This document shows, piece by piece, positions 8,837-34,434 of a DNA stretch of 64,000 nt. The notes beneath the pieces are model-generated. The model did not search any database. It had not been told where the DNA came from and saw only the letters and a list, made by a program, of their open reading frames with translations. Made by a program: the position numbers and the translations under genes. This DNA is from an uncultured bacterium (lineage in GTDB: Bacteria > Krumholzibacteriota > Krumholzibacteriia > LZORAL124-64-63): contig CAVSGO010000005.1 of assembly GCA_963727525.1 (NCBI GenBank), positions 64,001-128,000 on the forward strand, given 5' to 3'. Numbering within the stretch: the first letter of the stretch is position 1; each line of letters opens with the position of its first letter.

Positions 8837-9895
8837 TCAGTGCGTCCCCGGCGTGATGAGGTGGCACTTCTCGCAGAGCGGCCCCTGCTCCGGATCCCCG
8901 TAGGGATTCGGTAGCGGGAAGGACCCCGAGACTTCCCCATCGTCCTCGAGCAACGACACGTGGAAATCCCAGCGCCCCGCCGCCGGCGCCGACGAGGCGT
9001 GCGCGCGGTGGCAACTCAGGCACATGACGCGGCTGTTGCCGATCGGTCCGATCGTGCTCGTGGTGGCGGCACGAGTGTCCTCGAAGGGAACCTCGGGCAG
9101 GTAGGCGAGCGCAAAGGTACCGCCGCCCGGGTTGCGGGTGCCGTCGTAGTTGTTGTAGTTGCGCGCCGTGCCGTGGGACAGCGTGCTGTCGGTGGGGTGC
9201 TGGAAGACGCTGACCTGTTCCTCGTGATAGCGTCCATGGCAGTTCGCGCACCAATCGGACATGCCCGCGCGATAGGCGGTATGGGATTCCGGCGTCTCGC
9301 CCGAGGCGAACCCCTGCGGCGGCAGCCCCACGGCCGTGGGTGCCGGATGGCTGAACTGGTAGCGTCCGCCCTGGATCTCGCCCACGCCGTACAGCATCCG
9401 GAAGTTGTCGTTGCCGTGCGGATCGTGGCAACTCGTGCAGCCGAGCCAGGCGCTCGGATAGGTGCCTCCGGGTGCCTCGGTGAAGCGCGTGTCGGCGTCG
9501 GCCCCGCGGTCCGGCGCCACGATGCTGTGGCCGGCCGCCTCGCCGGCGATGGGCTGCGTCAAACCGTCCGGACCATCGTTGATGTTGTCCTCGAGCAAGA
9601 AGACGAAGTTGCCGGCGCCGCGCTCGACCGGCGGGGTGAGCGGATTCTCCCCGAATACGCCACCCTGTCCGCCGTGGCACATCAGGCACACGTCGCTCGG
9701 ACTCGCCGCCACGAGCAGGGCCTCCCCGCCGTCGATCAGGACATCGCCGTCGCGTTCACCGTGGGTGACGTGGCAGGATGCACAGCTGGCGACACCCTTG
9801 TCGTGGAACGCGCGCGCCGTGGGTCCCGCGAGCAGGACCAGGAGCCCCAGGCCAACGCCGGTCAGGCGGGTCATGCTGGGTCGTATGGACTTCAT
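8837..9895 (-). CDS. Hexaheme c-type cytochrome, OmcS/OmcT family paralogue
   Basis: Signal peptide, then FHDKGVASCASCHVTH. Six CxxCH motifs (CASCH, CLMCH, CTSCH, CANCH, CLSCH, CEKCH); APGGTYP, GMSDWCANCH and VMCLSCHRAHAS as in OmcS. Start could also be 9874. Confidence 0.88.
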   Translation of the reverse strand: MKSIRPSMTRLTGVGLGLLVLLAGPTARAFHDKGVASCASCHVTHGERDGDVLIDGGEALLVAASPSDVCLMCHGGQGGVFGENPLTPPVERGAGNFVFLLEDNINDGPDGLTQPIAGEAAGHSIVAPDRGADADTRFTEAPGGTYPSAWLGCTSCHDPHGNDNFRMLYGVGEIQGGRYQFSHPAPTAVGLPPQGFASGETPESHTAYRAGMSDWCANCHGRYHEEQVSVFQHPTDSTLSHGTARNYNNYDGTRNPGGGTFALAYLPEVPFEDTRAATTSTIGPIGNSRVMCLSCHRAHASSAPAAGRWDFHVSLLEDDGEVSGSFPLPNPYGDPEQGPLCEKCHLITPGTH

Positions 9896-10013
9896 GATGG
9901 TCAGGAAGGCTCCCCGGGATGCGTGTTCGTTGCGAGCCGTATGCCCGCCCCCCACAATATGATAGCACATTGACCGCGTGTTTCCAGCAGCATTGTCGCC
10001 GAACGGCTTTGGG

Positions 10014-10050
10014 AAAAAGGAGACCCCGCGGAGCACGCCGCGGGGTCCCC
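10014..10050 (-). terminator. Rho-independent terminator after the first omcS-like gene
   Basis: Minus strand GGGGACCCCGCGG-CGTGCT-CCGCGGGGTCTCC followed by TTTTT. Confidence 0.85.
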
Positions 10051-10088: not shown

Positions 10089-11192
10089 CTACTCGTTCGG
10101 GGCGTCGAACTCGTCCTTGACGTGGCACTTGTTGCACAGCGAGCGCTGGTTGTCGCTGAACGTGTACTGGTAGTACTTGTTCGTCACATCGTCAGCCGTC
10201 GCGCCGTCGTCGGTGATCTGCGGGTGGGATTCATTGATGAACGTCGTGCCCATGTCCCAGCGCGCGATGTCGGAGAAGGCCGACGCGTGCGCGCGGTGGC
10301 AGCTCAGGCACATGACCTTGTCGACGCTGTCCGGGCCCAGCGTGTAGTCCATGGAATCGACGGTCTCCAGGTCGACGTTGACGGCCTCGAACGGCACCAG
10401 ACCGGCGTACGCCGTCGCCTGATCGCCACCATTCGGGTCGTCGGTGCTGATGTAGGCGTTGTAGATGGCGGCCACGGTGCTGCCCAGGTTCTCGCCGGCA
10501 GGATGCACGTGGTTGGTCGTGTTGTCGGTCAGGAAGTTCGGGTGGCAGTTGGCGCACCACTCGCTCATGCCGCTCTTGTACACGGTGTGCTTGGCATCGG
10601 TCTCGTTGCCGTTGGTGTCGCCCACCATCGTGCGGCGGCTGTTGCCCTTGGCCAGCGGCGCCGCGCTGGTGAACGGGAAGCGGGTGCCGTCGTAGCGGGG
10701 GCCGGCACCGGCGCCGTAGAGCAGGCGGAAGTTGGCGTTGCCATGGGGATCGTGGCAGCTGGTGCACGCGAGGCGGCTGCTCAGGAAGTCGCCGCCGGGG
10801 GCATGCTCGAGCGTCTGGTCGACGTCGATGCCGTAGGCCGCGGACACGACGTTGTGGCCGTGGGAATCACCGGAGCTGACCGTGGTGTGGCCATGAGCGC
10901 TCCAGCTGTAGTCCTTGGTGACCCAGTAGAAGTCGCCGCCGGGGCCGTAGCCGGCGCCGCCATAGAACTGGCCGTAGTCGGCGTGGCAGCTCAGGCACAC
11001 GTCGGTCGGCGTCGCCGCGACGAGCAGGAACGGATAGCCGGTGGCGCTGTCGGTCACCTGCTCGCCGTCCTGGCTGTTGTGCATGGTGTGGCAGCCGGCG
11101 CACTCGGCGACGCCGCCAGCGTGAAACGCGAGCACCGCGTTGGCGCTCAGCGAGAGAGCGATGATGAGAGCAATCTTGAACGTGGTCTTCAC
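10089..11192 (-). CDS. omcS: Hexaheme c-type cytochrome, OmcS nanowire-subunit homologue
   Basis: GTG start with GGAGG RBS; signal peptide; mature N-terminus FHAGGVAECAGCHTMHNS (Geobacter OmcS as recalled: FHSGGVAECEGCHTMHNS); PGGDFYWVTKDYSW, GHNVV, APGG, CTSCHDPHG, GMSEWCANCH, HPAG, CLSCHRAHAS, QRSLCNKCHVKD. Six CxxCH motifs. Confidence 0.93.
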   Translation of the reverse strand: MKTTFKIALIIALSLSANAVLAFHAGGVAECAGCHTMHNSQDGEQVTDSATGYPFLLVAATPTDVCLSCHADYGQFYGGAGYGPGGDFYWVTKDYSWSAHGHTTVSSGDSHGHNVVSAAYGIDVDQTLEHAPGGDFLSSRLACTSCHDPHGNANFRLLYGAGAGPRYDGTRFPFTSAAPLAKGNSRRTMVGDTNGNETDAKHTVYKSGMSEWCANCHPNFLTDNTTNHVHPAGENLGSTVAAIYNAYISTDDPNGGDQATAYAGLVPFEAVNVDLETVDSMDYTLGPDSVDKVMCLSCHRAHASAFSDIARWDMGTTFINESHPQITDDGATADDVTNKYYQYTFSDNQRSLCNKCHVKDEFDAPNE

Positions 11193-11391: not shown

Positions 11392-12324
11392 TCAGCGACG
11401 CCCGAGTTCTCGCATCCTGAAAACCTGCACGCGGCCCTCGAAGCCCTGAGCCACGTAGATCCGCCCCTCCGGCGTCGCGGCGAGCGCCAGCGGGTGATAG
11501 AGCTGTCCGGGTCGGAAGCCGAGCTTGCCGAACTCCGTGACGAACGTGTGGTCGCTGTCGAAGACGAGCACGCAGGCGCGCATGCGATCGAGCACCAGGA
11601 CCTCGCCCTGCGGCCCGAAAGCCACGGCGACCGGAAAGCTCATGCGGCCCGGCGACGAGCCGAAGCGTCCAAACGTGTCGAGCAAGGCGCCATCGGCGGC
11701 CAGGACGATGATGTGACGCAGATCGCCGCCGGGAACGTAGATGCGACCATCCGACGCCTCGGCCGGGCGCCCCATCGCCGTGAACGAGCGGCCTTCGCTG
11801 ATGTCGCGCTGCCACAGGAGTGCGCCGGTGTGCGCATCGTGCTTCGCCAGCACGCCGGAAGCCGAGTCCAGGGTCAGGTAGTCGCCATCGCGCGTGATCA
11901 GCAGATGGTCGGGATTCCAGTCGGCGATGGGCGGTTGCGCCGCGTAGGCGACGGGCTCGCCGAATACGTTCAGACGGCGGATCTCCGTGTGGAAATCGCG
12001 GCCGCGATCGGTGAACACGAATCCGCCATCGCGATCGATTGCGCCATCGGCGGGGTACGAGAGATCGGCGAGACGACTCGTGCGGAAAACCTCGACATCG
12101 CTCGGGTTGAGCAGGTGGAATATGGACTGGCGTACATCGGTGACGCAGATCTCGCCGTTGGTAGGATCGATGGAGATGGCCACCGGCCGCGGCTTGCCGA
12201 CGCTGCCCACGGAGAGCGGCAGCGTCGCCTCGTAGTCGAAGGCGTAGCCCGCGGCGCAGACCACGGCGTCGAGCAAGGCGGCAGTGATCGTTGTAAAAAC
12301 TACCAATTTCGTCAGCGTATTCAC
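11392..12324 (-). CDS. NHL-repeat beta-propeller protein (OscD-like companion of OmcS)
   Basis: Signal-like N-terminus; repeated P-x-x-I/V-A-x-D/G-x-x-G-x-I/V-Y-V units and FGRFGSSPGRMSFP / FGKLGFRPGQLYHP NHL motifs. Start GTG 12324 or TTG 12357. Confidence 0.85.
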   Translation of the reverse strand: MNTLTKLVVFTTITAALLDAVVCAAGYAFDYEATLPLSVGSVGKPRPVAISIDPTNGEICVTDVRQSIFHLLNPSDVEVFRTSRLADLSYPADGAIDRDGGFVFTDRGRDFHTEIRRLNVFGEPVAYAAQPPIADWNPDHLLITRDGDYLTLDSASGVLAKHDAHTGALLWQRDISEGRSFTAMGRPAEASDGRIYVPGGDLRHIIVLAADGALLDTFGRFGSSPGRMSFPVAVAFGPQGEVLVLDRMRACVLVFDSDHTFVTEFGKLGFRPGQLYHPLALAATPEGRIYVAQGFEGRVQVFRMRELGRR

Positions 12325-12415
12325 AACTCGCGAGCCTCGGAATGCGAAATCGGACAATTATCGACCAGTTACAGGCCCACCAATCCGCAGCACCTGTTCA
12401 TTCCCGACGCCATCG

Positions 12416-12471
12416 AGCATATCAAACAAAAAGTAACTGTCAAACTATTTGCACAAAGGTTAACACCTTTG
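12416..12471 (-). promoter_or_regulatory. Sigma70-like promoter with an upstream palindrome, driving the NHL-omcS genes
   Basis: Minus strand TTGACA (12443-12438), 16 nt, TG-extended TATGCT (12421-12416). Palindrome CAAAGGT-TAAC-ACCTTTG at 12454-12471 in an AT-rich gap. Confidence 0.65.
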
Positions 12472-12552
12472 ATGTTTCTTTTTGCAATGGCCGAGAACCC
12501 CCCTCCAAATACCTATGAATTAAGGAATTCTGGAATTGTGAGAATGAACACT

Positions 12553-12582
12553 AGCGGCGGGCCCCCAAAAGAACCCGCCGCT
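12553..12582 (-). terminator. Hairpin, possible terminator after the giant multiheme gene
   Basis: AGCGGCGGG...CCCGCCGCT stem about 30 nt after the stop; weak U-tract. Confidence 0.5.
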
Positions 12583-12611
12583 GTCGCGATTTGCACCGTT
12601 TCCCGGAAAGC

Positions 12612-15600
12612 TCACTCCCGCTTCTGGCGCAGCTTGTCGGTGTGGCACTGTACGCAGAGGCGGCCGCCCGGGTCCGCAGTGAGGAACTTCGGGAAGGCAC
12701 TCCCGTGCTCATCGTGGCAGCTCGCGCACCCCATCGGACCACCCGTGCGCGGATCCGTGACAGACGGCCCGACCGGGTGGTCGGTGTGCTCGGCGTAGGT
12801 GTGGCAACCCAGACACGGTTCGCGCCGCGGCCCGGCGGCGGCTGCCTGCGTCGGCGCCGCGAGATGGGGATCGTGGCACATGCTACAGGTCCGGTCGTCG
12901 ATCACCGGATGCGTGTACGCGGCCTGGCGACGCTGGTCAACCTGCTCGGCATGGCACTGGCCGCATACGTCAGCCTGCTCGCGCGGCATCAGGGCCGCCT
13001 TCGGCGTGGTGTGAGGCGCATGGCACACGGTGCAGGCACCCCCGTTCGCGAGCGGAGCGTGCGGCACGCCCACTTTCAGGTCCTCACCCAGCCCGCGATG
13101 GCAGGTGAAGCACAACGCGGGTTCCGGCTTCACGAGATCGGTCTTGCCCGACACGTGACAGGCCGTGCACTGACCCTTGCGGTAGGGCGCATGAACGACG
13201 GCATGCGGCAGCGATTTCGCGTCCGACGCGTGCGGGGCGTGGCACGAGGCGCAGTCGGCCTCGGCCACCGGGAAGCCCTGGTGCTTGGACTTGAGGGCCG
13301 CGGCCGATTCACGGTGACAGTGGCCGCACACCTCTCGCGGCGCGGCGCGCAGGCTCATCGCCACGCGGCCGCCGTGCGCATCGTGGCACCCGAGGCAGTT
13401 GCCGGCGCGGAACGGGGCATGCACGAAGGCCTTCTTCTGTGCGGCCTGCAGGTCCGCGTGGCATTCCCAGCACAGCTTGCCGGCGGGTACGCGCAGCAAT
13501 GCCTTCTGCTGCGACGCGTGGGGCTCGTGGCAGGCGTCGCACTTGCCGTCGCGAACGGGCGTGTGCGCGAACGCGGGATTCGGTGCGAGATCCGCGAGGG
13601 CGTGGCACGACTCGCATGTCTCGGCCACGGTATCGGACACGAGCAAGTGCTCGCCGCGGCTGACATGAGGATTATGACAGGCTGAGCATTCGCCGGCCGC
13701 AACCGGGGCATGCACGACCGGAGCTGCCCCATGCCCCGTTACGGGATCCTCGTGGCAGCCCGCGCACAGGCTCGACTGGTCGACGATCGGCGCTTTCGAT
13801 TCGTGGCACACCGTGCAATCGCCGTCGGCGAATGGCGGGTGGCTGCGGGCGTGCAGCAGCGACGGTCTCGTGGAGCGGTGCGGTTCGTGGCACCACATGC
13901 AGTCGAGAGTACTGGGATCGCGGTCGAGATGCTTCTCCCGGAACGCGCTGGCGTTCTCGTCATGGCACTGGAAACAGAGCGCGGGCACCGGCTCGTTCAG
14001 GAAGCCCTTGCCCTCGCCGCCATGCGCCTGGTGGCAGGCGAGGCAATCGCCCTGGGCCGGCGCGTGGATGGACACCGCACCCTCGGTGGACGCGACGTCC
14101 TGATGGCAGAGTGTGCAGAGCACCTCGGTCGGGGCGACGAGGAGCTGCTTCTGCGGCGACCGGTGGGGATCGTGGCATGCCGTGCAGTCGCCGGTAGCCA
14201 CCGGCTGGTGCGCGTGCCAGTTCGGGCTCTGCGCAACCTGCACATCATGGCAGGTCGCGCAGATCTGCTGCGCGGGCTCGCGCAGGAATGCGGGGTTGTC
14301 GCCACCGTGCGGCAAGTGGCAGGTGCTGCACTCGCCGGCGGCCGTGGGCGCATGCACGCTGCCGCCGTCAGGCGCCGTCACCATGTCTTCGTGGCAGCGC
14401 TGACAGAGCTGCTCGGGCGCCGTATTCAGGAGCTGCGGCTGTCCCGCCGCGTGCGGCTCGTGGCAGGCCAGGCATTCACCGCGGGCCACCACGTCATGCG
14501 GATGGGCAGACGCGATCTGGAGCTGCGTACTCACGTGACAGCTCAGACAGAGCGCGCCGGGCTTGTCCCTGAGGAGCGAGGCCTCGCTCGCACTGTGGGG
14601 GTCGTGGCACTTCGTGCAGTCCTTCTTGACGACGGGCGCGTGGGTCGACGCCGCATCGGCCGGCACGACGTCGTCGTGGCAGGTCGTGCACAGGTCGCGC
14701 GAAGCGGCGACCAGGAGGTGCGGCTGCTGACCACCGTGCGGCGTATGGCACTCGGCGCAGTCGCCGTCGGCCACTGGCGCGTGCACGTCGGCGCGCTGGA
14801 AGGCGGCCGCATCGTGGCACGCAAGGCAGGTGCGCGCCTGGTCGCTGACCAGCAAGTGGGCATACGGACTGCCGTGCGGCGCGTGGCACGCCAGGCAATC
14901 GCCATCGGCCGCCGGCGGATGGGGCTCCGTGGCGCCGGCCGTCACGTCGTCATGGCACGCCTGGCAGAGCTGGGGCACCGTCGCCAGGAGCGCATGGTCG
15001 TCGCGCATGGCACCGTCGCTCGTGGTCTCGTGGCAGGAGGCGCAGTCGCCGTCGGCCACCGGCGCGTGGCGCACGACGTGCAGCATCGCCCGGGAGTCGG
15101 AGCTGTGCGGATCGTGGCACGAGATGCAGCCGCTGGGCGCGGTGGTCGCGTTGCCATGGGCGCTCGCCAGCTTCGCTGCGTCGTCATGGCACGAGGCGCA
15201 GAGCGCGTCGGGAGCCTCCTTGAGCATCGCCAGCTGGTCCGACCCGTGCGGGTCGTGACAGACCACGCAGCCGTCCTTCTTCAGGGGCTCGTGCACGTAC
15301 TTGCGCGCGAAGGCGCCGGCGTCATGGCAGCGGGTGCAATCCTTCGCACCGCGAGCCTGCAGGAGATAGGGCTGGCCCGAACCGTGCGGATCGTGGCACG
15401 CCGCGCAGCCATCGTCCTTGATCGGCGGGTGCGTCACCTTGCGCTTCACGGCCGTCGCCACATCGTCATGGCACTCGAGGCAAAGCGTGTTGCCCGGCAG
15501 CTTGAGCGCGAGCTTGCCCACCACGCCGTGCCGGATATGGCATGCCTCGCAGTCTGCCGCCTTGAACGGCTCGTGGGCGTACTTGTCCTTCACCTGCGAC

Positions 15601-15737
15601 TTCATCGTGTCGTGGCAGTCGAGACAGGCCTTCTGCTTGAACGGCCCCGCCTGAGCCGTCGCCGCCAGCATCACGACGACGGCGAGGCTCAGGAGAGCCC
15701 ACCGGCGAGCTTCGGTCATGAAGGAGGTGCGGACCAC
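12612..15737 (-). CDS. Giant multiheme c-type cytochrome, 42 CxxCH motifs (doubled-CXXCH repeats)
   Basis: Hand count of 42 CxxCH. Repeat unit HxP...CxxCHxPH.S...LL...LCxxCH; signal peptide ending ATAQA; GTG 15737 with GGAGG 7 nt upstream. Confidence 0.93.
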   Translation of the reverse strand: MVRTSFMTEARRWALLSLAVVVMLAATAQAGPFKQKACLDCHDTMKSQVKDKYAHEPFKAADCEACHIRHGVVGKLALKLPGNTLCLECHDDVATAVKRKVTHPPIKDDGCAACHDPHGSGQPYLLQARGAKDCTRCHDAGAFARKYVHEPLKKDGCVVCHDPHGSDQLAMLKEAPDALCASCHDDAAKLASAHGNATTAPSGCISCHDPHSSDSRAMLHVVRHAPVADGDCASCHETTSDGAMRDDHALLATVPQLCQACHDDVTAGATEPHPPAADGDCLACHAPHGSPYAHLLVSDQARTCLACHDAAAFQRADVHAPVADGDCAECHTPHGGQQPHLLVAASRDLCTTCHDDVVPADAASTHAPVVKKDCTKCHDPHSASEASLLRDKPGALCLSCHVSTQLQIASAHPHDVVARGECLACHEPHAAGQPQLLNTAPEQLCQRCHEDMVTAPDGGSVHAPTAAGECSTCHLPHGGDNPAFLREPAQQICATCHDVQVAQSPNWHAHQPVATGDCTACHDPHRSPQKQLLVAPTEVLCTLCHQDVASTEGAVSIHAPAQGDCLACHQAHGGEGKGFLNEPVPALCFQCHDENASAFREKHLDRDPSTLDCMWCHEPHRSTRPSLLHARSHPPFADGDCTVCHESKAPIVDQSSLCAGCHEDPVTGHGAAPVVHAPVAAGECSACHNPHVSRGEHLLVSDTVAETCESCHALADLAPNPAFAHTPVRDGKCDACHEPHASQQKALLRVPAGKLCWECHADLQAAQKKAFVHAPFRAGNCLGCHDAHGGRVAMSLRAAPREVCGHCHRESAAALKSKHQGFPVAEADCASCHAPHASDAKSLPHAVVHAPYRKGQCTACHVSGKTDLVKPEPALCFTCHRGLGEDLKVGVPHAPLANGGACTVCHAPHTTPKAALMPREQADVCGQCHAEQVDQRRQAAYTHPVIDDRTCSMCHDPHLAAPTQAAAAGPRREPCLGCHTYAEHTDHPVGPSVTDPRTGGPMGCASCHDEHGSAFPKFLTADPGGRLCVQCHTDKLRQKRE

Positions 15738-15764
15738 GGTGTATCCTCCCGCCACGTGGGCGAT

Positions 15765-17102
15765 CTATGGCGCGACGGCGCCTTCGCGACCAGTGCCTGC
15801 TGCCGCCACCCGCGCCGCGACCATGGCCTCGGCGTCGGGGACGATCGTGATCGGTGTGGCCGCCCTGAGCTTGGTGATGGCCTCGGACATCTGTGCCACG
15901 GACTGCTCCGTGCGCATGAGGCCGATGATCTTGCTACGGCAGGCGTCCAGCGGAGCGGGTTCGACCTTCTCGACGCCGTCGACCACGGCCACCACCCATC
16001 CGCCCGGCACCTCGAAGGGATCGAGCACCGTACCGGGCTTCATCTGCACCGCCTCGATGCCAAGCATCTGCGGGTCGAAGAAATCCTGCGGGAACGGCGG
16101 CGGCCCGTCGACGACGCCGGGCAGATTGCGCCGCAGCCAGCCGAGCATGGCCCCCTGCGCCAGCCGCGTCCGCATGGTCTCGGCCGCCTCCTTCGACTCG
16201 AGCTTGACGCTGTCGAGCTTCACCCGCGGCGCCGGTGTCACGTCCGACAGATGCTTCTCGTAAAACGCCTCGACCTCGGCATCGGTGGGCTTGGTGTCGA
16301 CCGCCGCGAAGATCTTCACCGACTCCTCCTGCACGAGCTGCCGCTCGAGCCGCCGCGCGTACAGGCGCAGGTCCGGCCGCTCATCGACATGCTCGATCTT
16401 GGCCTGATAGCGCACGAGAGCCTCATCGAGCCAGCTCGCGAAAATCTTGTCGCGCCGTTCGGCCGCGTCGGGCTTGCCCTCCATGCCGTGGTACTCGCGG
16501 AAACGTATCTCGCGCGAGAGATGCTTGACACGCATGGTCCCCGAAGGGATCCGGGTCAGCACGTCCTCGCTATCGTGCAGATGCTGCTGTATCGCCGGAT
16601 CGGCCGAGCCGTAGTCGAGCGACTTGAGGAGCGTCGTATCCACCGTGACGGCGTATTGCTCGCGGAGTCCCTGGATGTAGGCGTGCACCGCGGCCGTGCG
16701 CGACGGGACATCGGCGGCGGCGGTCGCGGCCACGGAATCGAGGAGCGCCTTGGAACACTGCGTACGCACCGCCTCCGTGACCTGATTCTTCACCGTGAAC
16801 TGCTGGTCCAGCCCCATCCGGTAGCCCTCCTGGATGATGAGCTGGTTCTCGATCATGCGTTTCAGGACGGCGGCCGGTTCCGGGAGCGCGATCGGCATAC
16901 CGGAGGGCGCACGCTGGCGCATGAGCGAGAGTTCGATATCAAGATCGACGACGCGCAGCGTGTCGTCGCCGATGAAGGCCAGGGGCTGCTCGGACGCGAC
17001 CGGCGTCGCAAGTGCCGGCACGGCCTGGACGCAGGCCACGGGCACCGCCGACAGGGCGATCAGCAGCAGTCCCGGCCACCAGGACAGGCGATGTACGGAC
17101 AT
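15765..17102 (-). CDS. SurA/PrsA/PpiC-like periplasmic chaperone / parvulin-type PPIase (OscH-like)
   Basis: Signal peptide; SurA-N-like VLKRMIENQLIIQEGYRMGLD and a second similar repeat; parvulin-like VKLDSVKLESKEAAE...MKPGTVLDPFEVPGGWVV. Confidence 0.75.
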   Translation of the reverse strand: MSVHRLSWWPGLLLIALSAVPVACVQAVPALATPVASEQPLAFIGDDTLRVVDLDIELSLMRQRAPSGMPIALPEPAAVLKRMIENQLIIQEGYRMGLDQQFTVKNQVTEAVRTQCSKALLDSVAATAAADVPSRTAAVHAYIQGLREQYAVTVDTTLLKSLDYGSADPAIQQHLHDSEDVLTRIPSGTMRVKHLSREIRFREYHGMEGKPDAAERRDKIFASWLDEALVRYQAKIEHVDERPDLRLYARRLERQLVQEESVKIFAAVDTKPTDAEVEAFYEKHLSDVTPAPRVKLDSVKLESKEAAETMRTRLAQGAMLGWLRRNLPGVVDGPPPFPQDFFDPQMLGIEAVQMKPGTVLDPFEVPGGWVVAVVDGVEKVEPAPLDACRSKIIGLMRTEQSVAQMSEAITKLRAATPITIVPDAEAMVAARVAAAGTGREGAVAP

Positions 17103-17103
17103 G

Positions 17104-18171
17104 TCAGGATTCCTTCCTCACCGAGCGAAGGTCTTGCCAGAGTCTATCGGCGGAGCGTTGCAAGATGCGCATGAGAGGCGTGGTGTCGGTGGACCCGAAC
17201 CACCGCACGTCGTCGCTGCGGTCGCGATACCGGGTGGCGCTGGCCGCCAGCAATCCGTCCGGAAGATCGATGGTCCGCAGCGTGAACGCGAAGTCGCGCA
17301 CACCCGTCGCATGCACACTGGGCGCGGCATCGTCGAACATGGCACTGCGCACGCCGCTGCCGCGCAGGTCGTCGAATGCGACCAGTTCCGGCCGCACGAG
17401 GGCGGACACGCCGAAATGGTCCTGGAGCTGCTGATACGCCGCGTGCTGCAATCGCTGCGGGTCGAATCCCGCGGCGAGCAGGTCGGACAGCACGAGCGCC
17501 GGATCGATGGGGCGGGCATCATGGCTGGCGAGCGCGGCGCCCAGGACGCAGAACGTCGCGGTCAGCGCCATGTCGGCATCACAACCCACGCCGATGGTCG
17601 GCATCACGAGCACCGATGCGGCACTCGTGGCGGGGGACACCGGGGAAGTGAGCTGAGCCATGACGCCTTGTACCGCCGCGAGCAAGGCCGCGGTCTCCCC
17701 CGCGGGATCCTCGCCGGTCAACCTCTCGGCCACTGGCTGCTCCGCGAGCCAGACCTGATTCACGCGTCCCGAACTCGTCTCGACGCCGCGAACCAGGGCC
17801 ACGACGCGCTGCGCCTCGACGATGACGTGCGCGACCACGAGATCAGCCACACCCACGCTATCGCGCGCAGCGGCGAGGAACGCCGGCGTCAAGAGCATGC
17901 TGCTGCGGATGCGCTCCTGCCGCGCAAGCGCCACGACTGCAGACGTCGGCGCGACATCGTGCCCCAGACGCTGCAATGCCGTCTCGCCGGCTCGCGTCAC
18001 GACGATGCGGAGCTGGCTCACGGTGATGGGCAGGACCGTTTCCGTACGGCCGCTGATGAAGACCAGGAGTCCCGTGCGCGCAGGAGCAGGCGCGGCCCAC
18101 ACCGGCCCGGCCGCCGCCAGCGTGGCGGCGAGCAGTCCGGCTGCGAATCGGTTGCGCGCGACGTCGGACAT
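17104..18171 (-). CDS. Exported protein, possibly with two TolB-N/CsgG-like alpha/beta domains
   Basis: ATG overlaps the upstream stop (TGATG); signal peptide ending PVWA; repeats ending VRGVETSSGRV and LRTIDLPDGLL resemble the l.l.d..tG strand of CsgG/LpoB folds. Confidence 0.55.
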   Translation of the reverse strand: MSDVARNRFAAGLLAATLAAAGPVWAAPAPARTGLLVFISGRTETVLPITVSQLRIVVTRAGETALQRLGHDVAPTSAVVALARQERIRSSMLLTPAFLAAARDSVGVADLVVAHVIVEAQRVVALVRGVETSSGRVNQVWLAEQPVAERLTGEDPAGETAALLAAVQGVMAQLTSPVSPATSAASVLVMPTIGVGCDADMALTATFCVLGAALASHDARPIDPALVLSDLLAAGFDPQRLQHAAYQQLQDHFGVSALVRPELVAFDDLRGSGVRSAMFDDAAPSVHATGVRDFAFTLRTIDLPDGLLAASATRYRDRSDDVRWFGSTDTTPLMRILQRSADRLWQDLRSVRKES

Positions 18172-18740
18172 CAGAACAACGTTTCCATGGCATCGTCGAC
18201 GGCCTCGCGTGTCACGTCGTAGAGACTCGCCGAGCCGCCACCGAAGAGCTTGCGCCAGATCGAGGTTCCGTTGCGATGGACCTGGCTCTGCCACACCAGG
18301 GACCCGGTCTGCGTCTCTGCCAATGCCAGCGTCAACGTCACTGCGTTGACGCGGTCGCCGCCGAGCTTCTCCGCCCCATAGTCCTCGACGGATCCGAAAA
18401 CGATGGCGTCGACACCGAGCTCCTTGCCGAGCGCCACGATCTGCTCGGACGAGGGATCCTGATTCGTGTCGAGCTTGAGGCTGCGGATCGCAGCGTAGAC
18501 CTGGCCTTCTTCGATCACACGCAGCGCGCCACGATCGAGCAGGTACGACATGACCACCGAGTAGACACGCGCGTCCGCGAACGGATCCGGTGTGCGATTC
18601 TGGAGGGGGTAGACAGCCGCGCGTTGGATGAAGCTGTAGTCGACATCCTCGCGCACGAAGGATGTCGGCCGAGAGGCGCAGCCTGGAAAGACCGCCCCCA
18701 CGACAAGCAGGATCCCCAGGCCGATTGTGGTTCGCTTCAT
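18171..18740 (-). CDS. Lipoprotein of the CsgG/PelC/GNA1162/LpoB-like fold
   Basis: Lipobox FPGC; AAVYPLQNRT, ALGKELGVDAIVFGSVEDY, LALAETQTGSLVWQ; GGGAGG RBS. Confidence 0.8.
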   Translation of the reverse strand: MKRTTIGLGILLVVGAVFPGCASRPTSFVREDVDYSFIQRAAVYPLQNRTPDPFADARVYSVVMSYLLDRGALRVIEEGQVYAAIRSLKLDTNQDPSSEQIVALGKELGVDAIVFGSVEDYGAEKLGGDRVNAVTLTLALAETQTGSLVWQSQVHRNGTSIWRKLFGGGSASLYDVTREAVDDAMETLF

Positions 18741-18795
18741 CGTACCGCCTCCCGTTCGTATTGACGAACGTCCCACGAAATCAGTGATTCCAGAC

Positions 18796-21006
18796 TCAGA
18801 AAGTCCAGGTCCCTCTCACGTTCCAGTTCGTCGGCGTATTACGATCTCCATGCTGCTTGACCAGAGTCCACTCCGCACCACCCTCGAAGCGCAGATGGCG
18901 GCGCGCCTTCCATACGGCGCCCCAGCCCGCGCCACGCTGCACGTAGTCGGTGCGGGTGTCCTGCTGGTCGGTGAGATAGAGTCGCAAATTCATGCTGCCA
19001 CCTGGCAGCGGGGTCCAGCTCAGGGTATTGCGTAGCAACCAGGCGTCTTCGTCGCGCACCTGGTACAGGACCTGACTGTTGAAGAACACGAGCGGCCGGA
19101 TGGACCAGTTGACATCGAGGCTCGTGTCGTTGAACGGCGTGAACCCGGAGCCCGCCTCCTGGTTGACCCAGCGATCGGCGCGACGCAGGTGCAGATCGAG
19201 GTAGGGCCGCGGCGCCCCGCGCACGTCGGACACGAGTACCCAGGAGTGGCTCTGCCCGTCCACGTCCTGCGCATCGCGAATGCCATAGGTGACCTTCTGG
19301 GCGAACGTGAGCCGCGGCTTGGCGTCCCAGGTCACGTCGCCCGTCCAGGAGTTCGTCGTACGGCGCTGGATGTCGCTCTGATCGTTCACGCGCGACCAGG
19401 CGACGCGCGCGCGCAGATCGGCCCGCCGGGCCGTGGCGACGGACACGTGCTGGGCCGTAACGTCCGTATTCTGCCGGGACGCGCTGATCACACGATTGAT
19501 CTGGTGGTCGGCCGACACAACCACGGGACCGGGCCGCCACGAGGCGCCGAACACATGGGCCATGCCGTAGACGTCGCGATCGTCGGTGTCGTAGTGGCGA
19601 CCAGTGAGGCTGGTGCTGTAGCGCACGCCGATGGTGGTCGTCAGGTCGTAGCCGATGTCGCCCTGCACACGATAGCGGTCGAGCGTGGAACGCACGCGCG
19701 TGTCGCCGCTGCCGGGCGCCGGTTCGTACACCTCCATCTCGTTCACGTAGAGGTCGGCCTCGGTGGGGCCGAACTTCTGATCGACGAGCTTGAGGCGACG
19801 ATGCGCGATCGGCGTGGCGAAGGTGAAGACCCAACCTTGACGGTTATCGGCCATCTCGTCCCAGACGACCGACACCTGACCCGCCGACAGCGGGTCGCCC
19901 CACTCACGCCCCTCGGGATCGTCGCTCACGTAGACCGACCAGGCGATCAGATCCGGGAAGCGGACGATGCGGTCGACGTAGAGGACGACCGACGCCATGG
20001 TCTGCGCCTCGCCGAAGTCGACGATGAGGTTGCGGAAGTCGCCGCCATACTGGCGCACGATCGAGGCCGAGTCGCCGATGTTGATCACGGTCGGCGTGTC
20101 GCGATCGCCGTCGGCCAGGGCCGTCACGGCCACGGGATCGAGCTCGAGCGGATCGAGGATCCCGGGCGTATCGTCGAGCGAGTAGCCGCTCCAGATCGGC
20201 GGCACGAGGATCGTGGCCCCGCTGCCGAATGCGGTGTTGGTCTGGCGGAAACGGCTGCCGGTGGCCTGGAGGGAATACCGTCCGCGGTGGTCGGCGAAGG
20301 CCCGCGCGCTACGCAGTTGCACCTCGTGGCTCACGTACTCGGTCTCATGGCCCTGAGTCTTGGCCCGCTGATCGCTGCGTGTGAACTGGTACTGCACGGA
20401 CTCGAACCGCGTGGGGTCGACCTCCACACGGCCCGACTGACGATGTTCGCGATTCTCCCGGCTCGTGCCGTTGGCCTCGCGCCACGATCCGATCTCGAGG
20501 GCGCGCGCCTCCAGTGAGATCTGCGCGAACTCGAGGCGCGACCAACCACCGTACTCCGCGTAGTCGTCCCGGCGGGACGTGCCGTCGGCATACCAGTAGT
20601 CGCGGCGCGAAGCGAGACCCGAGAGTCCGCTCCGCCACGCGCCCGTCTCGTAGTTCAGCAGCAGGCTCGGACTCGCGTACTCCGAATGCGACTTGCTGGT
20701 CGCGCCGTCGAAGCTGCTCTCGAGATGCTGGCGCCTCGCGACGGCACTGCTCAGGAGATCCAGGCCGCGCATGAATACGATACGTTGATCGAGGCGGTAG
20801 GTCTCGGTGAGCGTGGAGTTGTCGTAGGCCGTGAGTCCGGCGCCACCGCTCTGCCACGTATTCCAGAGGTCGGCGCGCCCGTTGAGGGCGAGCGCCGCAG
20901 GCGCGAGACCGGCAACCACGACGACGAGGAACAGGCAAGACGCCTGGACGTGCGCTCTGCTGCCCGCGCAGCACTCGTCGAATCGCGTTGCCGGAAGCAC
21001 TCGCAT
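18796..21006 (-). CDS. Predicted outer-membrane beta-barrel protein with an inserted discoidin-like domain
   Basis: Signal peptide; alternating polar/aromatic strands; C-terminal beta-signal WNVRGTWTF; central segment ALADGDRDT...LIVDFGEAQTMASVVLY...LYVNEMEVY. Start uncertain (21006 or 21066). Confidence 0.7.
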   Translation of the reverse strand: MRVLPATRFDECCAGSRAHVQASCLFLVVVVAGLAPAALALNGRADLWNTWQSGGAGLTAYDNSTLTETYRLDQRIVFMRGLDLLSSAVARRQHLESSFDGATSKSHSEYASPSLLLNYETGAWRSGLSGLASRRDYWYADGTSRRDDYAEYGGWSRLEFAQISLEARALEIGSWREANGTSRENREHRQSGRVEVDPTRFESVQYQFTRSDQRAKTQGHETEYVSHEVQLRSARAFADHRGRYSLQATGSRFRQTNTAFGSGATILVPPIWSGYSLDDTPGILDPLELDPVAVTALADGDRDTPTVINIGDSASIVRQYGGDFRNLIVDFGEAQTMASVVLYVDRIVRFPDLIAWSVYVSDDPEGREWGDPLSAGQVSVVWDEMADNRQGWVFTFATPIAHRRLKLVDQKFGPTEADLYVNEMEVYEPAPGSGDTRVRSTLDRYRVQGDIGYDLTTTIGVRYSTSLTGRHYDTDDRDVYGMAHVFGASWRPGPVVVSADHQINRVISASRQNTDVTAQHVSVATARRADLRARVAWSRVNDQSDIQRRTTNSWTGDVTWDAKPRLTFAQKVTYGIRDAQDVDGQSHSWVLVSDVRGAPRPYLDLHLRRADRWVNQEAGSGFTPFNDTSLDVNWSIRPLVFFNSQVLYQVRDEDAWLLRNTLSWTPLPGGSMNLRLYLTDQQDTRTDYVQRGAGWGAVWKARRHLRFEGGAEWTLVKQHGDRNTPTNWNVRGTWTF

Positions 21007-21089
21007 CCTCGTGAATCCTGTATCGCCGCGGCGATGCGTCCCCCACAACGCGTGACTTCGCTGCACGGTGCTGTCGAAATGTGGTTAAA

Positions 21090-21169
21090 AGCGTAACAGT
21101 ATGGCGTCACGGAATCAAATAATTCCTAATTATCAGTCGGATTTCTTGACAGACAACGTTCGGATTTCT
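21090..21169 (-). promoter_or_regulatory. Sigma70-like promoter with a 10-bp direct repeat
   Basis: Minus strand TTGATT (21118-21113), 17 nt, TG-extended TACGCT (21095-21090). TCGGATTTCT occurs at 21137 and 21160. Confidence 0.55.
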
Positions 21170-21996
21170 CAGAAGCCGGCCTGGGCGACCTGCGGCGACG
21201 GCACGCCTGGCGACGCGAATTGATGGCAACCGAGGCAGAGATCCCGCGGTGGGTCGAACGGGATCAGAAGGTCGCGCGTGGTCGCCGTCAGCAAGTGGCA
21301 CGTCTGGCACTCGAGCCGCCCCGCCGGCAACGGTAGGCGGCTGTCGAGATCGGCCCGCAAGCGGCTGCCGGGAATCGTCTGCCCCGCACGCACCGCGATG
21401 CCGAAGGGATGACTCGCGTGCTCGTCGAACCGCGGACCGGTCTCGGCCCCTCGTTCACGCCAGAACGACGCTTTGTTACCGGAATGGCAACCGAGACAAC
21501 CCTCGGACGGGGAGAGCCCGGCGAGCCGCTTCGCGTCCTCGTGATAGAGTCTCGCGGCTTCACGATGCGCATCCGAGACCTGGGCAAGATCGTGCCCCGG
21601 CCCGTGGCATGACCGGCAATGGGCCGCGTCCACGGTGCGCAGACTCGCCAGCGACAGGCTGCCGAGCGGCGTCGCGACGGCATCGGGCGCATGGAAGGCA
21701 TGGCAGCGCACGCAATCGGGAGCATCCGCGCCCCCGCCCCGCACCTGGTGGAACCAGGTCGCGAGCGCACGGGTCGAGGCCGGATGCGCGCCATGGCAAC
21801 TCCGGCACGCCGCCGTCGACGCGTTCCCGCCGGCCGACGCACCGCTGGCGGAACGGAGATGGCAGAGGCGGCAATCCACTCCGGAGTGCGCCGTCGCTTG
21901 GCCCGGATCGGCCGCGCCAGCCGACGCGGCGAGGAGGACCAGGGCTGCGAGGATCACCCCCGCCAACCGGCGATGCTTGATCACGTTGCTCATCAT
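21169..21996 (-). CDS. Exported heptaheme c-type cytochrome
   Basis: Signal peptide; seven CxxCH (CRLCH, CRSCH, CVRCH, CRSCH, CLGCH, CQTCH, CLGCH); C-terminal SHPFG...LPL..G.LECxTCH module. Confidence 0.88.
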   Translation of the reverse strand: MMSNVIKHRRLAGVILAALVLLAASAGAADPGQATAHSGVDCRLCHLRSASGASAGGNASTAACRSCHGAHPASTRALATWFHQVRGGGADAPDCVRCHAFHAPDAVATPLGSLSLASLRTVDAAHCRSCHGPGHDLAQVSDAHREAARLYHEDAKRLAGLSPSEGCLGCHSGNKASFWRERGAETGPRFDEHASHPFGIAVRAGQTIPGSRLRADLDSRLPLPAGRLECQTCHLLTATTRDLLIPFDPPRDLCLGCHQFASPGVPSPQVAQAGF

Positions 21997-22040: not shown

Positions 22041-23343
22041 TCAGTGACTGGATTCACTGTCGAGGCGGCGCAAGACCGAGTTCACCGACTCGGCATCGCC
22101 CTCGCGCGCCACGGCCAGGGCGAGGGCGCGCGCCATCGCGAGGTCGTCCTGCTCGCCGCTGGCCCGCCGGAGATTGCCGGCCACGAGGCCGACGACCTTT
22201 CGCATGAGCGACTGGGAGAAACGGTCGAGCTGCTCGTGGTCTTCAGGCTGGAAGCGTCGCTTCTGGCGGGCCACCTCGTCACTGCGCAGCGTCTCGAGCA
22301 CCTGGGCGAGCTGCTCCACCATCGGCGCCACGCGGTGCTCGCGATACCAGGCGACGAACTCCTCGACGTGTTTGTCGATGAGCTTCTCGGCGCGCTCGGC
22401 CTCGTGTTCGCGCGCCTTGAGGTTCGCGGCGACCAGCTCCTGGAAGTCGTCGACGTTGTAGAGATAGAGATCCGGCAGACCACGCACGTCCGGTTCGACG
22501 TCGCGTGGCACGGCGAGATCGAGGATGAGCTGCGGCCGCTTGCGCTTCTTGTTGGCCGGCGCCACCCGCTCGCGGGCGAGCACCGCCTCCGGTGATCCGG
22601 TGGCGCAGACCACGATGTCGGCCCACACGAGATCATCGAAAGCCGGCGGGTACGCGGTGGGGCGACCACCGAGCAGATCGGCGACGACGCGCGCGTTCGA
22701 CTCCGGTACGGTTGGCCACGCGCCAGTTCGCCACGCCGGCGCTCTGCAGATGCTTGGCCGCCAGCCGCGCCGTCTCGCCTGCCCCCACGAGCAGAACGTT
22801 GCGGCCTGCGAGATTGCCGAAGATCCGCTGGGCCATTTGCACCGAGGCGCTGGCCACCGACACGGCGCCCTGACTGATCCCCGTCCGGTGACGTGCGGCC
22901 TTGCCCGCCTCGATGGCGCGCAGCATGGTCTTGTTGAGCACGCTGTTGGTGGTGCCCAGCTCCTGGGCCTGCATGTACGCATTCTTGAGCTGGCCGAGGA
23001 TCTGCACCTCGCCCAGCATCTGGCTGTCGAGTCCCGCGGCGAGGCGCATGACGTGGCGGACCGCCTCGTCGTCGCGCAGGATGTACGCGCTGGCGGCCTC
23101 GGCGGGAGCGAGCCCCGTCAAGTCGCACAGGAGATCGCGCAATTCGTCGGCGTGGCAGTGCTGCAGGGGCGACAGGTAGAGCTCGGTGCGGTTGCACGTG
23201 CTGAGCACGACGGCACCCTCCACGCCCTCCTGCGTGACGAGGCGCTGCACCGCCTCGGCCACTTGCTCCGAACCCATGGCTGCCTTCTCACGCACCTCGA
23301 TGCTGCTGGTGCGGTGGTTCAGCCCGATCAGTTCGAGCCTCAT
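22041..23343 (-). pseudogene. hemA: Glutamyl-tRNA reductase with a +1 frameshift near 22704 (real lesion or sequencing error)
   Basis: N-part MRLELIGLNHRT, LSTCNRTE, GLDSQMLGEVQILGQ, VGAGETA, VANRT is in the frame of ORF 22633..24099. C-part ESNARVVADLLGG, DLAVPRDVEP, LYNVDD is in the frame of ORF 22041..22982. Removing one base at 22703/22704 gives 433 aa. Confidence 0.9.
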
Positions 23344-24167: not shown

Positions 24168-24360
24168 GATGGCGATCCTCCGTACGGGCGACGCCGCCGG
24201 CGCACGCCGCGACGCCCCTGGAATGTAAGACCTAATTCGTGGTCGCGACAGGACGACATCGCCGACGCTGTTTCCGGGGGCGCCATGTGATATGATCGTG
24301 TTCCGTTCGCGTCGAGACCGTAGGACCAAGCCGATCACACCGTTTCAAGAGAGATCCGCC

Positions 24361-26535
24361 ATGACGTACCGTCCCCTCGCGGCCCTCGCGCTGGTCGCGA
24401 TCGCCACCACCACCGTCGCCATGGCGTCGGCAGGGACCAGCCCCTGGCGCGTGAGCGCCCAGGGTCGGGTCGCCCCGGACCTGGCGCGATACCACGACGT
24501 CTCACCGCTGGGCACCACCTCCGTCGACGTCGTCCCACGTCGGGTCGATTTCCACCTGCGCAGCGCCGACGTCACGGTCACCGGCCCCGACGGCATTCCC
24601 CACGTCATGCTCGACCTGGACGGCGCCACGTTCCTGCCGGCCGAGGACGGACTGCTGGTCGCGATCGACCCCTTTCCGGCCCAGGCGCGCATCCGCGTCC
24701 TCGACCTCACAGGCCGGGAACGGCTCGTGCGGCGGGTCCCGTCCCTGTCCGACCCGGCGCTGACGAGCGACGGGCATCACCTGGTCTACCGGCGGCGCGG
24801 CGGGGTGAGCGTGCTCGATCTCGCCCGTGGCACGGTGACCGACCATGCGCCGAGCGTCCTCTTCGCGGCCGGTCCATCCGGGCGATTCGCCGGCGTCGTG
24901 GCGGACGCACCCCGCACGGTCATGATCGACGACGGCGCGACCACGTTCACGCTCGCCGTTGATGTGCGCAAGCTCGCCTGGTCGAGCGACGGCGCGCAGC
25001 TCTGGGTGCTCGATGCCCGCACGCTCTCCCTCTACACACCGGCAGAAGGCAAGGTGGCGCCGGTGCTCGCGTGCCCCGCGGGAGCCGAATTCCGCGACCT
25101 GCGGCTGGGCAGCCGCGAGATGGCGGTGGGGCTGCGGCACATCGACGGCACGATCGCGCACGGCACCCTGATCGTCCTGGACACGGCCGGTCGCGTGCGC
25201 GCGCGGCGCAATGGCCCGAGCGCCGACATCACACCGGCGGCCTTCGGCGAGAACACCCACGAGACCATCCCCTGGCCCCTGCTGCCCAACGCGCAGCACG
25301 CCGTGGGCAACACCTACGGCGAGTACCAGAACTACGGCTCGGCCTACCTGCACCCCGGCTTCGACATCTTCGGTTCGCCCGGCCAGGCCGTGTACGCGGT
25401 GAAGGGCGGCGTGGTGAAGGCCATCCTCACGACGAGCGGCGCGTACCACTGGCGCATCGCGATCGGCGAGCCGGGCAGCGGCACCAGCGAGGGCTATCTC
25501 TATGCGCACGTCGACCAGCCCACCATCGCCGTGAGCGTGGGGCAGACCGTCACTACCGGCCAGTTCCTCGGCAACCTGGTGGAATGGCCCAACGACAACT
25601 TCACTCACTGCCATTTCGGGCGCATACGCGACGCCGGAACCGTCTGGTCGGGCAGCTGGCTCAACACCGACAACCCGCATCTCGACATGGAGAACCAGAA
25701 CGACCAATCCTGGCCGGTCTTCGTGCCGGCGGTGGGCAACGACATGTTCGCCTTCTGCACCAACCAGACGTCGAGTTACCAGAGTCCCGCGGCCCTACAC
25801 GGCGCCATCGACATCATCGCCCACGTGGGCGACACCATCAACTCGAGCTGGGTGTGCGCGGTGCAGTCGATCCGCTACAGCATCTACCCCGCTGGGCATC
25901 CCGAACAGCCGGTGGTGGACGACAAGCTCGCCGTGAACTTCGACATGCTGCTGGATACCTACCAGAACAGCACGATCGACCAGTTCCTCGTGGGACTGCT
26001 CTACAAGCGTGACACGACCTGCTTCACCGAGGGCGACTACGGCGCGCGCGAGTTCTATCACATCATCACGAACTCGAACGGCGACGAGATCTACGACGCG
26101 AGCGATCTGGCCGAGGCCTGGGATACGACGCAGCTCTACGACGGCGACTACGTGGTGGACGTCACCGCGCGCGATGCTTCGGGACGCGCGGCGAGCGCGA
26201 CGATGACGGTGACGACGCAGAACGGCAACTTCCCCACGGGCGTGGGCGAAGACCTCGCACCCTCGCTCACGTTGCGGGGCTTCCCGAACCCGACGCCGGC
26301 CGGCGTGAACCTGCGCTACGCATTGCCGCGAGCGGGCGCCACGACGCTCGCGGTATATGACCTCGGCGGCCGCCTCGTCCGTCATCTCGTGGGGGGCCTG
26401 GCCGTACCGGGTGCGTACGCGACGCGCTGGGACGGGCGCAACGACGCAGGTGTGCCCGTCGCCGGCGGCACGTATCTGCTGAAGCTGACGTCCACCGCGG
26501 GCGTGCGCACGGAGAAGGTGTTGCTGGTCAGGTGA
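24361..26535 (+). CDS. Secreted protein with a beta-propeller-like N-terminus, M23 peptidase-like domain and FlgD-Ig/T9SS-like CTD
   Basis: Signal peptide; LHPGFDIFG, YAHVD and HCHF M23-like motifs; FPNPTP...VYDLGGRLVRHL...WDGRNDAGVPVAGGTYLLKL. Confidence 0.75.
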   Translation: MTYRPLAALALVAIATTTVAMASAGTSPWRVSAQGRVAPDLARYHDVSPLGTTSVDVVPRRVDFHLRSADVTVTGPDGIPHVMLDLDGATFLPAEDGLLVAIDPFPAQARIRVLDLTGRERLVRRVPSLSDPALTSDGHHLVYRRRGGVSVLDLARGTVTDHAPSVLFAAGPSGRFAGVVADAPRTVMIDDGATTFTLAVDVRKLAWSSDGAQLWVLDARTLSLYTPAEGKVAPVLACPAGAEFRDLRLGSREMAVGLRHIDGTIAHGTLIVLDTAGRVRARRNGPSADITPAAFGENTHETIPWPLLPNAQHAVGNTYGEYQNYGSAYLHPGFDIFGSPGQAVYAVKGGVVKAILTTSGAYHWRIAIGEPGSGTSEGYLYAHVDQPTIAVSVGQTVTTGQFLGNLVEWPNDNFTHCHFGRIRDAGTVWSGSWLNTDNPHLDMENQNDQSWPVFVPAVGNDMFAFCTNQTSSYQSPAALHGAIDIIAHVGDTINSSWVCAVQSIRYSIYPAGHPEQPVVDDKLAVNFDMLLDTYQNSTIDQFLVGLLYKRDTTCFTEGDYGAREFYHIITNSNGDEIYDASDLAEAWDTTQLYDGDYVVDVTARDASGRAASATMTVTTQNGNFPTGVGEDLAPSLTLRGFPNPTPAGVNLRYALPRAGATTLAVYDLGGRLVRHLVGGLAVPGAYATRWDGRNDAGVPVAGGTYLLKLTSTAGVRTEKVLLVR

Positions 26536-34296: not shown

Positions 34297-34341
34297 GACG
34301 CATGCGTCCTTTGGTCGGGTGATGGTCAGCAGTTTTTTTAT

Positions 34342-34370
34342 ACTATAACGTATTTTTAGATCTATTTCAA
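34342..34370 (-). promoter_or_regulatory. Near-consensus sigma70 promoter for the beta-helix/sulfatase/sulfotransferase genes
   Basis: Minus strand TTGAAA, 17 nt, TATAGT, in an AT-rich gap. Confidence 0.75.
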
Positions 34371-34434
34371 TATGCCAGTCGGGGTGCGGCGGGGTGCCGA
34401 ACCGAGGTCGGCGCATACCACCGTTTTACGGCCG

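Follow-up and report, generated by a model that had tools for sequence, protein, structure and literature searches.

In a 64,000-nucleotide stretch of DNA from an uncultured Krumholzibacteriota bacterium (contig CAVSGO010000005.1, positions 64,001 to 128,000; hereafter the window, whose own positions are used for all coordinates), we analysed a minus-strand gene, 12612..15737, which encodes a c-type cytochrome with 42 CxxCH heme-binding motifs. Judged from its sequence and that of its relatives, this gene very probably encodes, as a single chain, the two paired cytochromes OscI and OscJ of the omcS-companion (osc) cluster. We are just as confident that its product, for which export is predicted, would be a Sec-exported, soluble chain of 42 c-type hemes. 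More tentatively, and by analogy with known conduits, we propose that the chain might act as a fixed-length, envelope-spanning electron conduit that would enter the OscE barrel and feed an OmcS-like filament, a role to which we give somewhat less than even odds. For the explanation as a whole, identity together with envelope-spanning mechanism, we estimate a probability of about one half.

The open reading frame (ORF) covers 12612..15755, stop codon included, and offers three candidate starts: GTG at 15755, GTG at 15737 and ATG at 15719. The start at 15737 has GGGAGGA 7 nt upstream and gives a product of 1041 aa, followed by the stop. A preliminary description of this DNA had noted 42 CxxCH motifs in about 1040 aa, and the motif count confirms it: 42 motifs in 1041 aa, holding all 84 cysteines, or one heme per ~25 residues. 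Simple arithmetic on the composition of the protein (84 Cys and 95 His in 1041 aa) gives a chance expectation of ~0.6 motifs. A motif scan of the protein found no CxxxCH, CxxxxCH or CxxCK variants, and 53 histidines lie outside the motifs. The doubled-CXXCH build that had been described is seen as 21 Paired_CXXCH_1 stretches in Pfam (E 2.9e-207), and the protein belongs to this family (PF09699 / TIGR01905), with 22 stretches counted by NCBIfam. Successive motifs lie 17–29 residues apart, mostly alternating between 23 and 25. Steps of 28 residues occur at hemes 8 to 9, 25 to 26 and 34 to 35, where the preliminary description had placed irregular linkers, and the shortest step (17) is that from heme 26 to heme 27.

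Residues 1–30 (15648..15737, minus strand) form a predicted Sec signal peptide, with an RR n-region, a hydrophobic stretch and an end of the type ATAQA↓G. This is the sole hydrophobic segment: in the whole protein, 19-residue windows above 1.5 are confined to the N-terminus, and the AlphaFold2 (AF2) model has a helix there at residues 2–22 (numbering from ATG 15719). Since there is no free cysteine, the protein has no lipobox. The signal peptide and the lack of a lipobox or transmembrane anchor, as first described, therefore stand, with cleavability judged by eye only. An NrfH/CymA-like membrane-anchored quinol dehydrogenase was also considered on account of an NrfH match at residues 18–79. 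The match is below threshold (61.9 bits against a cut-off of 134.2), and the candidate was dropped, given that AQA↓G closes the helix and that the family consensus does not keep the Met which follows heme 1.

Relatives of the protein carry the same sites in one chain or in two. A protein search scored 8000 candidates, 1086 of them with E ≤ 0.001, and the best 120 of these 1086 were analysed. Exactly 42 CxxCH motifs were found in 85, exactly 26 in 23 and other counts in 12. Identity to the window protein was 26–39% among these best 120, and the named 42-heme proteins among them come from Zixibacteria, Krumholzibacteria, Latescibacterota, Gemmatimonadaceae and the FCB group. In an alignment of 85 rows (the window protein and 84 homologues), every one of the 42 motifs is invariant.

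In addition, a genome scan confirmed 607 stretches and kept 78 loci. A single 42-heme ORF is present in 27 of the 78, including one (L032) with a 43rd motif ahead of its signal peptide. Another 30 carry a 26-heme ORF and, next to it downstream, a 16-heme ORF, and 5 have 25+16 or 26+15, three of which have CxxxCH or CxxxxCH at the apparently missing site. The other 16 loci are cut by contig ends, frameshifted or otherwise different. The 42-heme single chain is not rare, and dozens of same-length homologues are public under generic names. The rarity implied by the preliminary description is thus refuted by the very comparison it had proposed, with homologues of the same length: the 42-heme form is ordinary in about half of the related clusters.

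The spacing profile is identical in the 27 fused and 30 split systems, all three 28-residue steps included. This collinearity, together with the 26+16 split pairs, is the reason for reading the window protein as OscI and OscJ in one chain. The OscI-like part, hemes 1–26 (13803..15647, minus strand), is collinear in spacing with the 26-heme ORFs of split loci and scores 329–461 bits in phmmer against 26-motif ORFs (340–461 among the 30 clean split loci). The OscJ-like part, hemes 27–42 (12615..13766, minus strand), is collinear with the 16-heme ORFs that come after 26-heme ORFs, with phmmer scores of 196–340 bits. Between heme 26 and heme 27 lies a joint of 12 residues, ESKAPIVDQSSL (13767..13802, minus strand), and the motif-to-motif spacing here is 17 in the window protein and 17–24 across fused homologues. 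It is here that split loci end the first ORF with a stop codon and begin a second one, with a start and a signal peptide of its own. In each of the 35 split pairs (30 clean 26+16 pairs and 5 near-pairs) the upstream protein ends 2–12 residues past its last motif, and a hydrophobic leader, read by eye, stands in the downstream ORF shortly ahead of the first motif; the first site of one such downstream ORF (L071) is CLDSH.

According to passages of PMC13194489 and PMC12977616, the osc names denote GSU2501 (OscC, OmcS-like), GSU2495 (OscI) and GSU2494 (OscJ), and passages of PMC2996986 and PMC12977616 give GSU2495 26 heme motifs. The Geobacter sulfurreducens pair shares with the window protein the 26+16 sites, equal spacing, the three junctions and clear sequence homology, as well as a position after the OscH isomerase in a homologous E-F-G-H block. 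OscI and OscJ, however, are two polypeptides with their own signal peptides, whereas the window has a single ORF, the 12-residue linker at the joint and no second signal peptide. Over the best tblastn segment, the match to Geobacter-type loci reaches only 33–38% identity.

Some relatives show further variants of the layout. The fused protein of a Nitrospirota-labelled metagenome-assembled genome (MAG; L065, 9983-13168) has 41 motifs, the lost site being heme 27, at the OscI/OscJ joint. A 1217-aa metagenome protein (P0104) contains rotamase (prolyl isomerase) domains and 26 CxxCH, an apparent OscH-OscI fusion or a missed stop codon. Still larger variants exist, such as a 1629-aa relative (P0019) with 52 CxxCH and 127 Cys.

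The 42-heme gene is repetitive at the protein level, which could raise the suspicion that repeat-driven mis-assembly joined or expanded shorter cytochrome genes. We give this next to no credence. At the DNA level the intragenic repeats are just 60–77% identical and Tandem Repeats Finder detects no tandem array inside the gene, so collapse or expansion of repeats during assembly is unlikely. Moreover, the 42-site layout recurs in 26 independent genome loci, as well as in the 85 database matches.

Unit-by-unit scoring over the 85 sequences distinguishes two alternating heme types, B and A, and places an additional heme of type A, called A', at each of positions 9, 26 and 35. The unit order of the chain is (BA)x4-A'-(BA)x8-A'-(BA)x4-A'-(BA)x3-B, and the units are MtrA-like di-heme units. 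The triplets 8-9-10, 25-26-27 and 34-35-36 are mutual best matches, and the best long diagonal lies at offset 26, where hemes 1–16 resemble hemes 27–42. The split point falls exactly after an A' heme, at a module boundary. Outside the motifs, 41 histidines are conserved at 80% or above and 39 at 99% or above, and no Met is conserved across the family alignment. This pattern suggests that nearly all hemes are probably bis-His ligated.

To relate the two architectures, trees were computed from 57 complete systems, namely the 27 fused and the 30 split ones (concatenated), leaving out 21 cut or deviating loci. Architecture requires one change only on the tree, and the fused/split branch has a support of 73 in FastTree and of 88 by the Shimodaira–Hasegawa-like approximate likelihood ratio test (SH-aLRT) in a quick IQ-TREE run. 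The fused rows fall into two clades: one of 11, in which the window lies, and one of 16, which contains Eisenbacteria, Zixibacteria, Ignavibacteria, Gemmatimonadota and one MAG labelled Geobacteraceae. Midpoint rooting of the otherwise unrooted tree makes the fused form paraphyletic, which would mean fission, and the joint (17–24 residues) resembles the never-split junctions 9 to 10 and 35 to 36, which fits the same reading. A single event of fusion or fission would explain the tree; neither the midpoint rooting nor the joint spacing proves its direction. The preliminary description had suggested a fusion or expansion of separate large multihemes lying near Geobacter omcS. The correspondence it guessed is right, since the chain equals OscI (GSU2495 type, 26) plus OscJ (GSU2494 type, 16) heme for heme, whichever direction the change took.

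The locus nearest to the window, at 57–59% identity, is that of a Krumholzibacteria MAG (L036). Ten close loci (L001-4, 6, 9, 12, 15, 16 and 36) have their genes in the order of the window, from the barrel gene as far as the OmcS-like ones, and the upstream 7-heme cytochrome is present in six of these ten. At least ten phyla appear among the labels of the loci in which the 42 sites and the distances between them are kept. The MAG labelled Geobacteraceae (L019), whose 42-heme protein is fused, forms a pair with L068, a MAG labelled Myxococcota, within the FCB-type fused clade, and this pairing points to horizontal transfer or a binning error.

The neighbouring genes, all on the minus strand, follow the order 7-heme cytochrome, E, F, G, H, 42-heme gene, NHL protein (D) and two OmcS homologues. 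The block begins with a 7-heme periplasmic cytochrome (21169..21996; 7 CxxCH, Cytochrom_c3_2), which is kept in the closest loci. Next comes an OscE-like protein of 756 aa (18796..21066), modelled by AF2 as a large outer-membrane beta-barrel with an inserted beta domain; a family search of its sequence gave no match, and its profile matches syntenic ORFs in split loci. Its C-terminal WTF is conserved in eight of nine relatives, the ninth ending in WHF or WRY. No Pfam family matched the inserted beta-rich domain (~residues 265-430). The OscF-like gene encodes an LpoB-like lipoprotein (18171..18776; LpoB, E 2.3e-8) that matches syntenic ORFs in most loci. The OscG-like protein (17104..18294, 396 aa) has no family in Pfam or NCBIfam, and in Geobacter-type loci its profile matches the ORF at the syntenic place, flanked by F and H. 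The OscH-like protein is a predicted periplasmic prolyl isomerase (15765..17102; Rotamase_2, E 3.4e-12), which in split loci matches the ORF that immediately precedes the 26-heme gene.

The 42-heme gene is followed by an AT-rich spacer of 254 bp (12358-12611), within a genome of ~67% GC. Directly 3' of the gene the spacer has a terminator-like hairpin (12553..12582, minus strand; 13-pair stem, 9 GC pairs), and before the NHL and OmcS-like genes a sigma-70-like promoter (12416..12443, minus strand; TTGACA-16-TATGCT, 10 of 12 matches), both as consensus matches only. These two elements suggest two transcription units, split at the spacer. The second unit would comprise an OscD-like NHL beta-propeller (11392..12357; NHL, E 3.5e-10, with syntenic matches), an OmcS homologue with 6 hemes (10089..11192; 6ef8_A, OmcS, E 7.4e-55) and a second OmcS-like hexaheme cytochrome (8837..10036; 6ef8_A, E 4.6e-29, 6 CxxCH). 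The first homologue aligns from residue 1 of the solved 6ef8 OmcS chain, CHTMH stretch included. The genome that carries both homologues has Krumholzibacteria MAGs as its nearest relatives. A 313-aa ORF just before the cluster, on its upstream side (22041-22982, minus strand), resembles glutamyl-tRNA reductase, of heme synthesis, with matches only to the NAD-binding and dimerisation domains.

The 42-heme gene thus stands directly downstream of the OscH isomerase, in an E-F-G-H block with an NHL propeller and OmcS-like hexahemes. In Geobacter, Geomonas and other split loci, syntenic ORFs are matched by proteins F and H and by the profiles of E and G. By this homology and gene order, we identify the cluster as an osc cluster. 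One difference concerns the OmcS-like genes, which in the window come after the 42-heme gene and have a promoter-like site of their own, whereas in the Geobacter osc cluster they lie upstream.

In passages of PMC13194489 and PMC12977616, OscD is assigned to filament morphology, OscEFG to secretion and OscH to folding. Since the same passages, citing Shen et al. 2025, describe the osc cluster as machinery for OmcS folding, secretion and morphology, the cytochrome could itself be an assembly factor, for example by keeping the redox or ligation state of the OmcS-like subunits or by priming polymerisation at the OscEFG channel. The position of its gene directly after the isomerase gene, and the rotamase domains joined to 26 hemes in P0104, would suit such a helper. 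Pfam and NCBIfam, however, suggest no chaperone or enzyme domain apart from the hemes, and 42 hemes are a large cost for a helper protein. We therefore regard this role as unlikely.

The AF2 model of the 42-heme protein, built from the 85-row alignment, has a mean predicted local distance difference test score (pLDDT) of 85.5 and a predicted TM-score (pTM) of 0.56. Its sole fold match in the PDB with E < 0.001 is MtrA (6r2q_A; E 4.2e-6, TMt 0.45), which is also the best PDB match by sequence (E 1.7e-14). MtrA/DmsE proteins (TIGR03508; 6R2Q chain A) share the doubled-CXXCH units of the window protein, which passes the TIGR03508 cut-off with 440.1 bits versus 192.2, although this score is summed over 9 repeated stretches. 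They differ in size, with 10 hemes in ~330 aa versus 42 hemes in ~1040 aa, so the window protein does not show the ten hemes in ~300 residues of that family. The model of the OscE-like barrel (pLDDT 84.7) has ~28 long strands besides the inserted beta domain, and it is matched best in the PDB by MtrB, of the entry that also contains MtrA (6r2q_B; E 4.1e-10, TM-score 0.32-0.35). Like MtrA beside MtrB, the 42-heme gene lies three genes (~3 kb) from this large barrel, with the caveat of that low TM-score. A surface decaheme of the MtrC type is absent from the window cluster, where OmcS homologues stand in its place.

Extracellular proteins exist among other large multihemes, and a passage of PMC13194489 presumes that the neighbouring barrel exports OmcS. 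One might therefore ask whether the 42-heme protein is itself secreted and works outside the cell, as a terminal reductase or filament part. This is very improbable in our view. The protein has no lipobox or sorting domain and no likeness to OmcS itself, its best PDB match being MtrA, and OscI and OscJ are periplasmic by prediction in a table of PMC13194489.

Instead, the MtrA likeness of the protein, the MtrB likeness of its neighbour and the conserved heme count lead us to regard as plausible a barrel-insertion reading, in which the chain would be the periplasm-spanning wire that the preliminary description had proposed. One end of the chain, possibly the OscJ-like C-terminal part, would enter the MtrB-like OscE barrel in the outer membrane, and the remainder would span the periplasm. 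Electrons from inner-membrane or periplasmic donors might then pass along the chain to an OmcS-like filament assembled at the OscE channel. In loci with split genes, an end-to-end contact of OscI with OscJ would restore the 42-heme chain. The length is compatible with this arrangement: a passage of the review PMC7096707 gives ~27 hemes per ~200 Å of periplasm, and on that scale 42 hemes would by arithmetic reach ~310 Å, roughly the periplasm plus the outer membrane. The same source describes very large periplasmic multihemes beside porins, with 21-24 hemes in iron oxidisers and one protein of 86 hemes. Likened by these descriptions, such proteins share with the window protein the idea of a peptide-minimised, periplasm-bridging heme chain beside a porin, whereas the context in the window is an OmcS-type filament cluster.

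A soluble protein without an anchor, of very high heme density, whose global fold is not confidently modelled as extended, would also suit a periplasmic electron reservoir, a floating 42-heme capacitor that buffers electrons for the filament with no membrane bridging and no barrel entry. A store, however, would tolerate changes in heme number, yet fused and split systems alike, under at least ten phylum labels, preserve the 42 sites and the distances between them. The MtrA/MtrB likeness of the protein and its neighbour likewise suggests barrel insertion. We consider a reservoir improbable, about as much so as an assembly factor.

Several observations weigh against the conduit that we prefer. 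With TM-scores as low as 0.45 for MtrA and 0.32-0.35 for MtrB, and with 22-strand TonB-dependent receptors matching the OscE-like barrel nearly as well as MtrB does, the barrel likeness is only generic. The model does not settle the global shape, its pTM being only 0.56, and at the three A' junctions the chain could double back. Family and hydrophobicity scans found no membrane anchor or quinol dehydrogenase in the cluster. The published route by which OmcS is charged, in passages of PMC10954620 and PMC13591261, uses the diffusible cytochromes PpcA-E. According to a table of PMC13194489, oscJ is frameshifted in an electroactive G. sulfurreducens line, and oscJ is therefore not essential for current production in that line; the same source describes OmcS itself as dispensable on anodes. 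Finally, complex prediction lends weak support to end-to-end docking of OscI and OscJ. The C-terminal part of OscI folded with the N-terminal part of OscJ from Geobacter sp. AOG1 scored 0.35, against 0.00 for the best control; the runs share 93% or more of their contacts, with a partner pLDDT of 82 or higher. Among 157 solved complexes 116 attained the docking mark, as did 2 of 215 mismatches; at scores of 0.60 or below, just 18 of the 157 did so, together with both mismatches.

A bolder extension of the conduit is that the exact count of 42, kept in one or two chains, is a molecular ruler for the cell envelope. The chain would then be a hard-wired conduit from the inner membrane to the surface through OscE, charging OmcS-type filaments directly by a route that needs no diffusible PpcA-type shuttles. 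We hold this to be rather doubtful.

As a kind, osc cytochromes were already published in 2025, and the 42-heme form is common in public data. The literature searched, which excluded the primary osc paper (Shen et al. 2025, PMC11845295), contained, among the papers listed, no mention of a fused OscIJ form or of the 26+16 sum. A Front Chem 2025 review (PMC12307469) and PMC13748539, on anaerobic methanotrophic archaea (ANME), contain no passage on osc. A 2026 review (PMC13591261) calls electron entry from the periplasm to OmcS filaments poorly characterised, and a term search of it found no mention of osc cytochromes. In this setting the fused form serves as a natural "Rosetta stone", which predicts that Geobacter OscI and OscJ act as one 42-heme unit. 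The conserved count and the MtrA/MtrB likeness of protein and barrel provide a concrete, testable model for electron entry into OmcS-type filaments. The osc-type clusters of Krumholzibacteria, Eisenbacteria, Zixibacteria and relatives carry the complete machinery.

Elsewhere in this bacterial window, genes for topoisomerase VI subunits B (42243-43940, plus strand) and A (46173-47516, plus strand) enclose an M32 carboxypeptidase gene. Three large predicted enzymes end in a FlgD Ig-like domain, namely an M23 peptidase, a beta-helix protein and an M14 carboxypeptidase (24292-26535, plus strand; 32209-34416, minus strand; 51592-54195, plus strand), and this domain may be a shared C-terminal sorting or attachment module.

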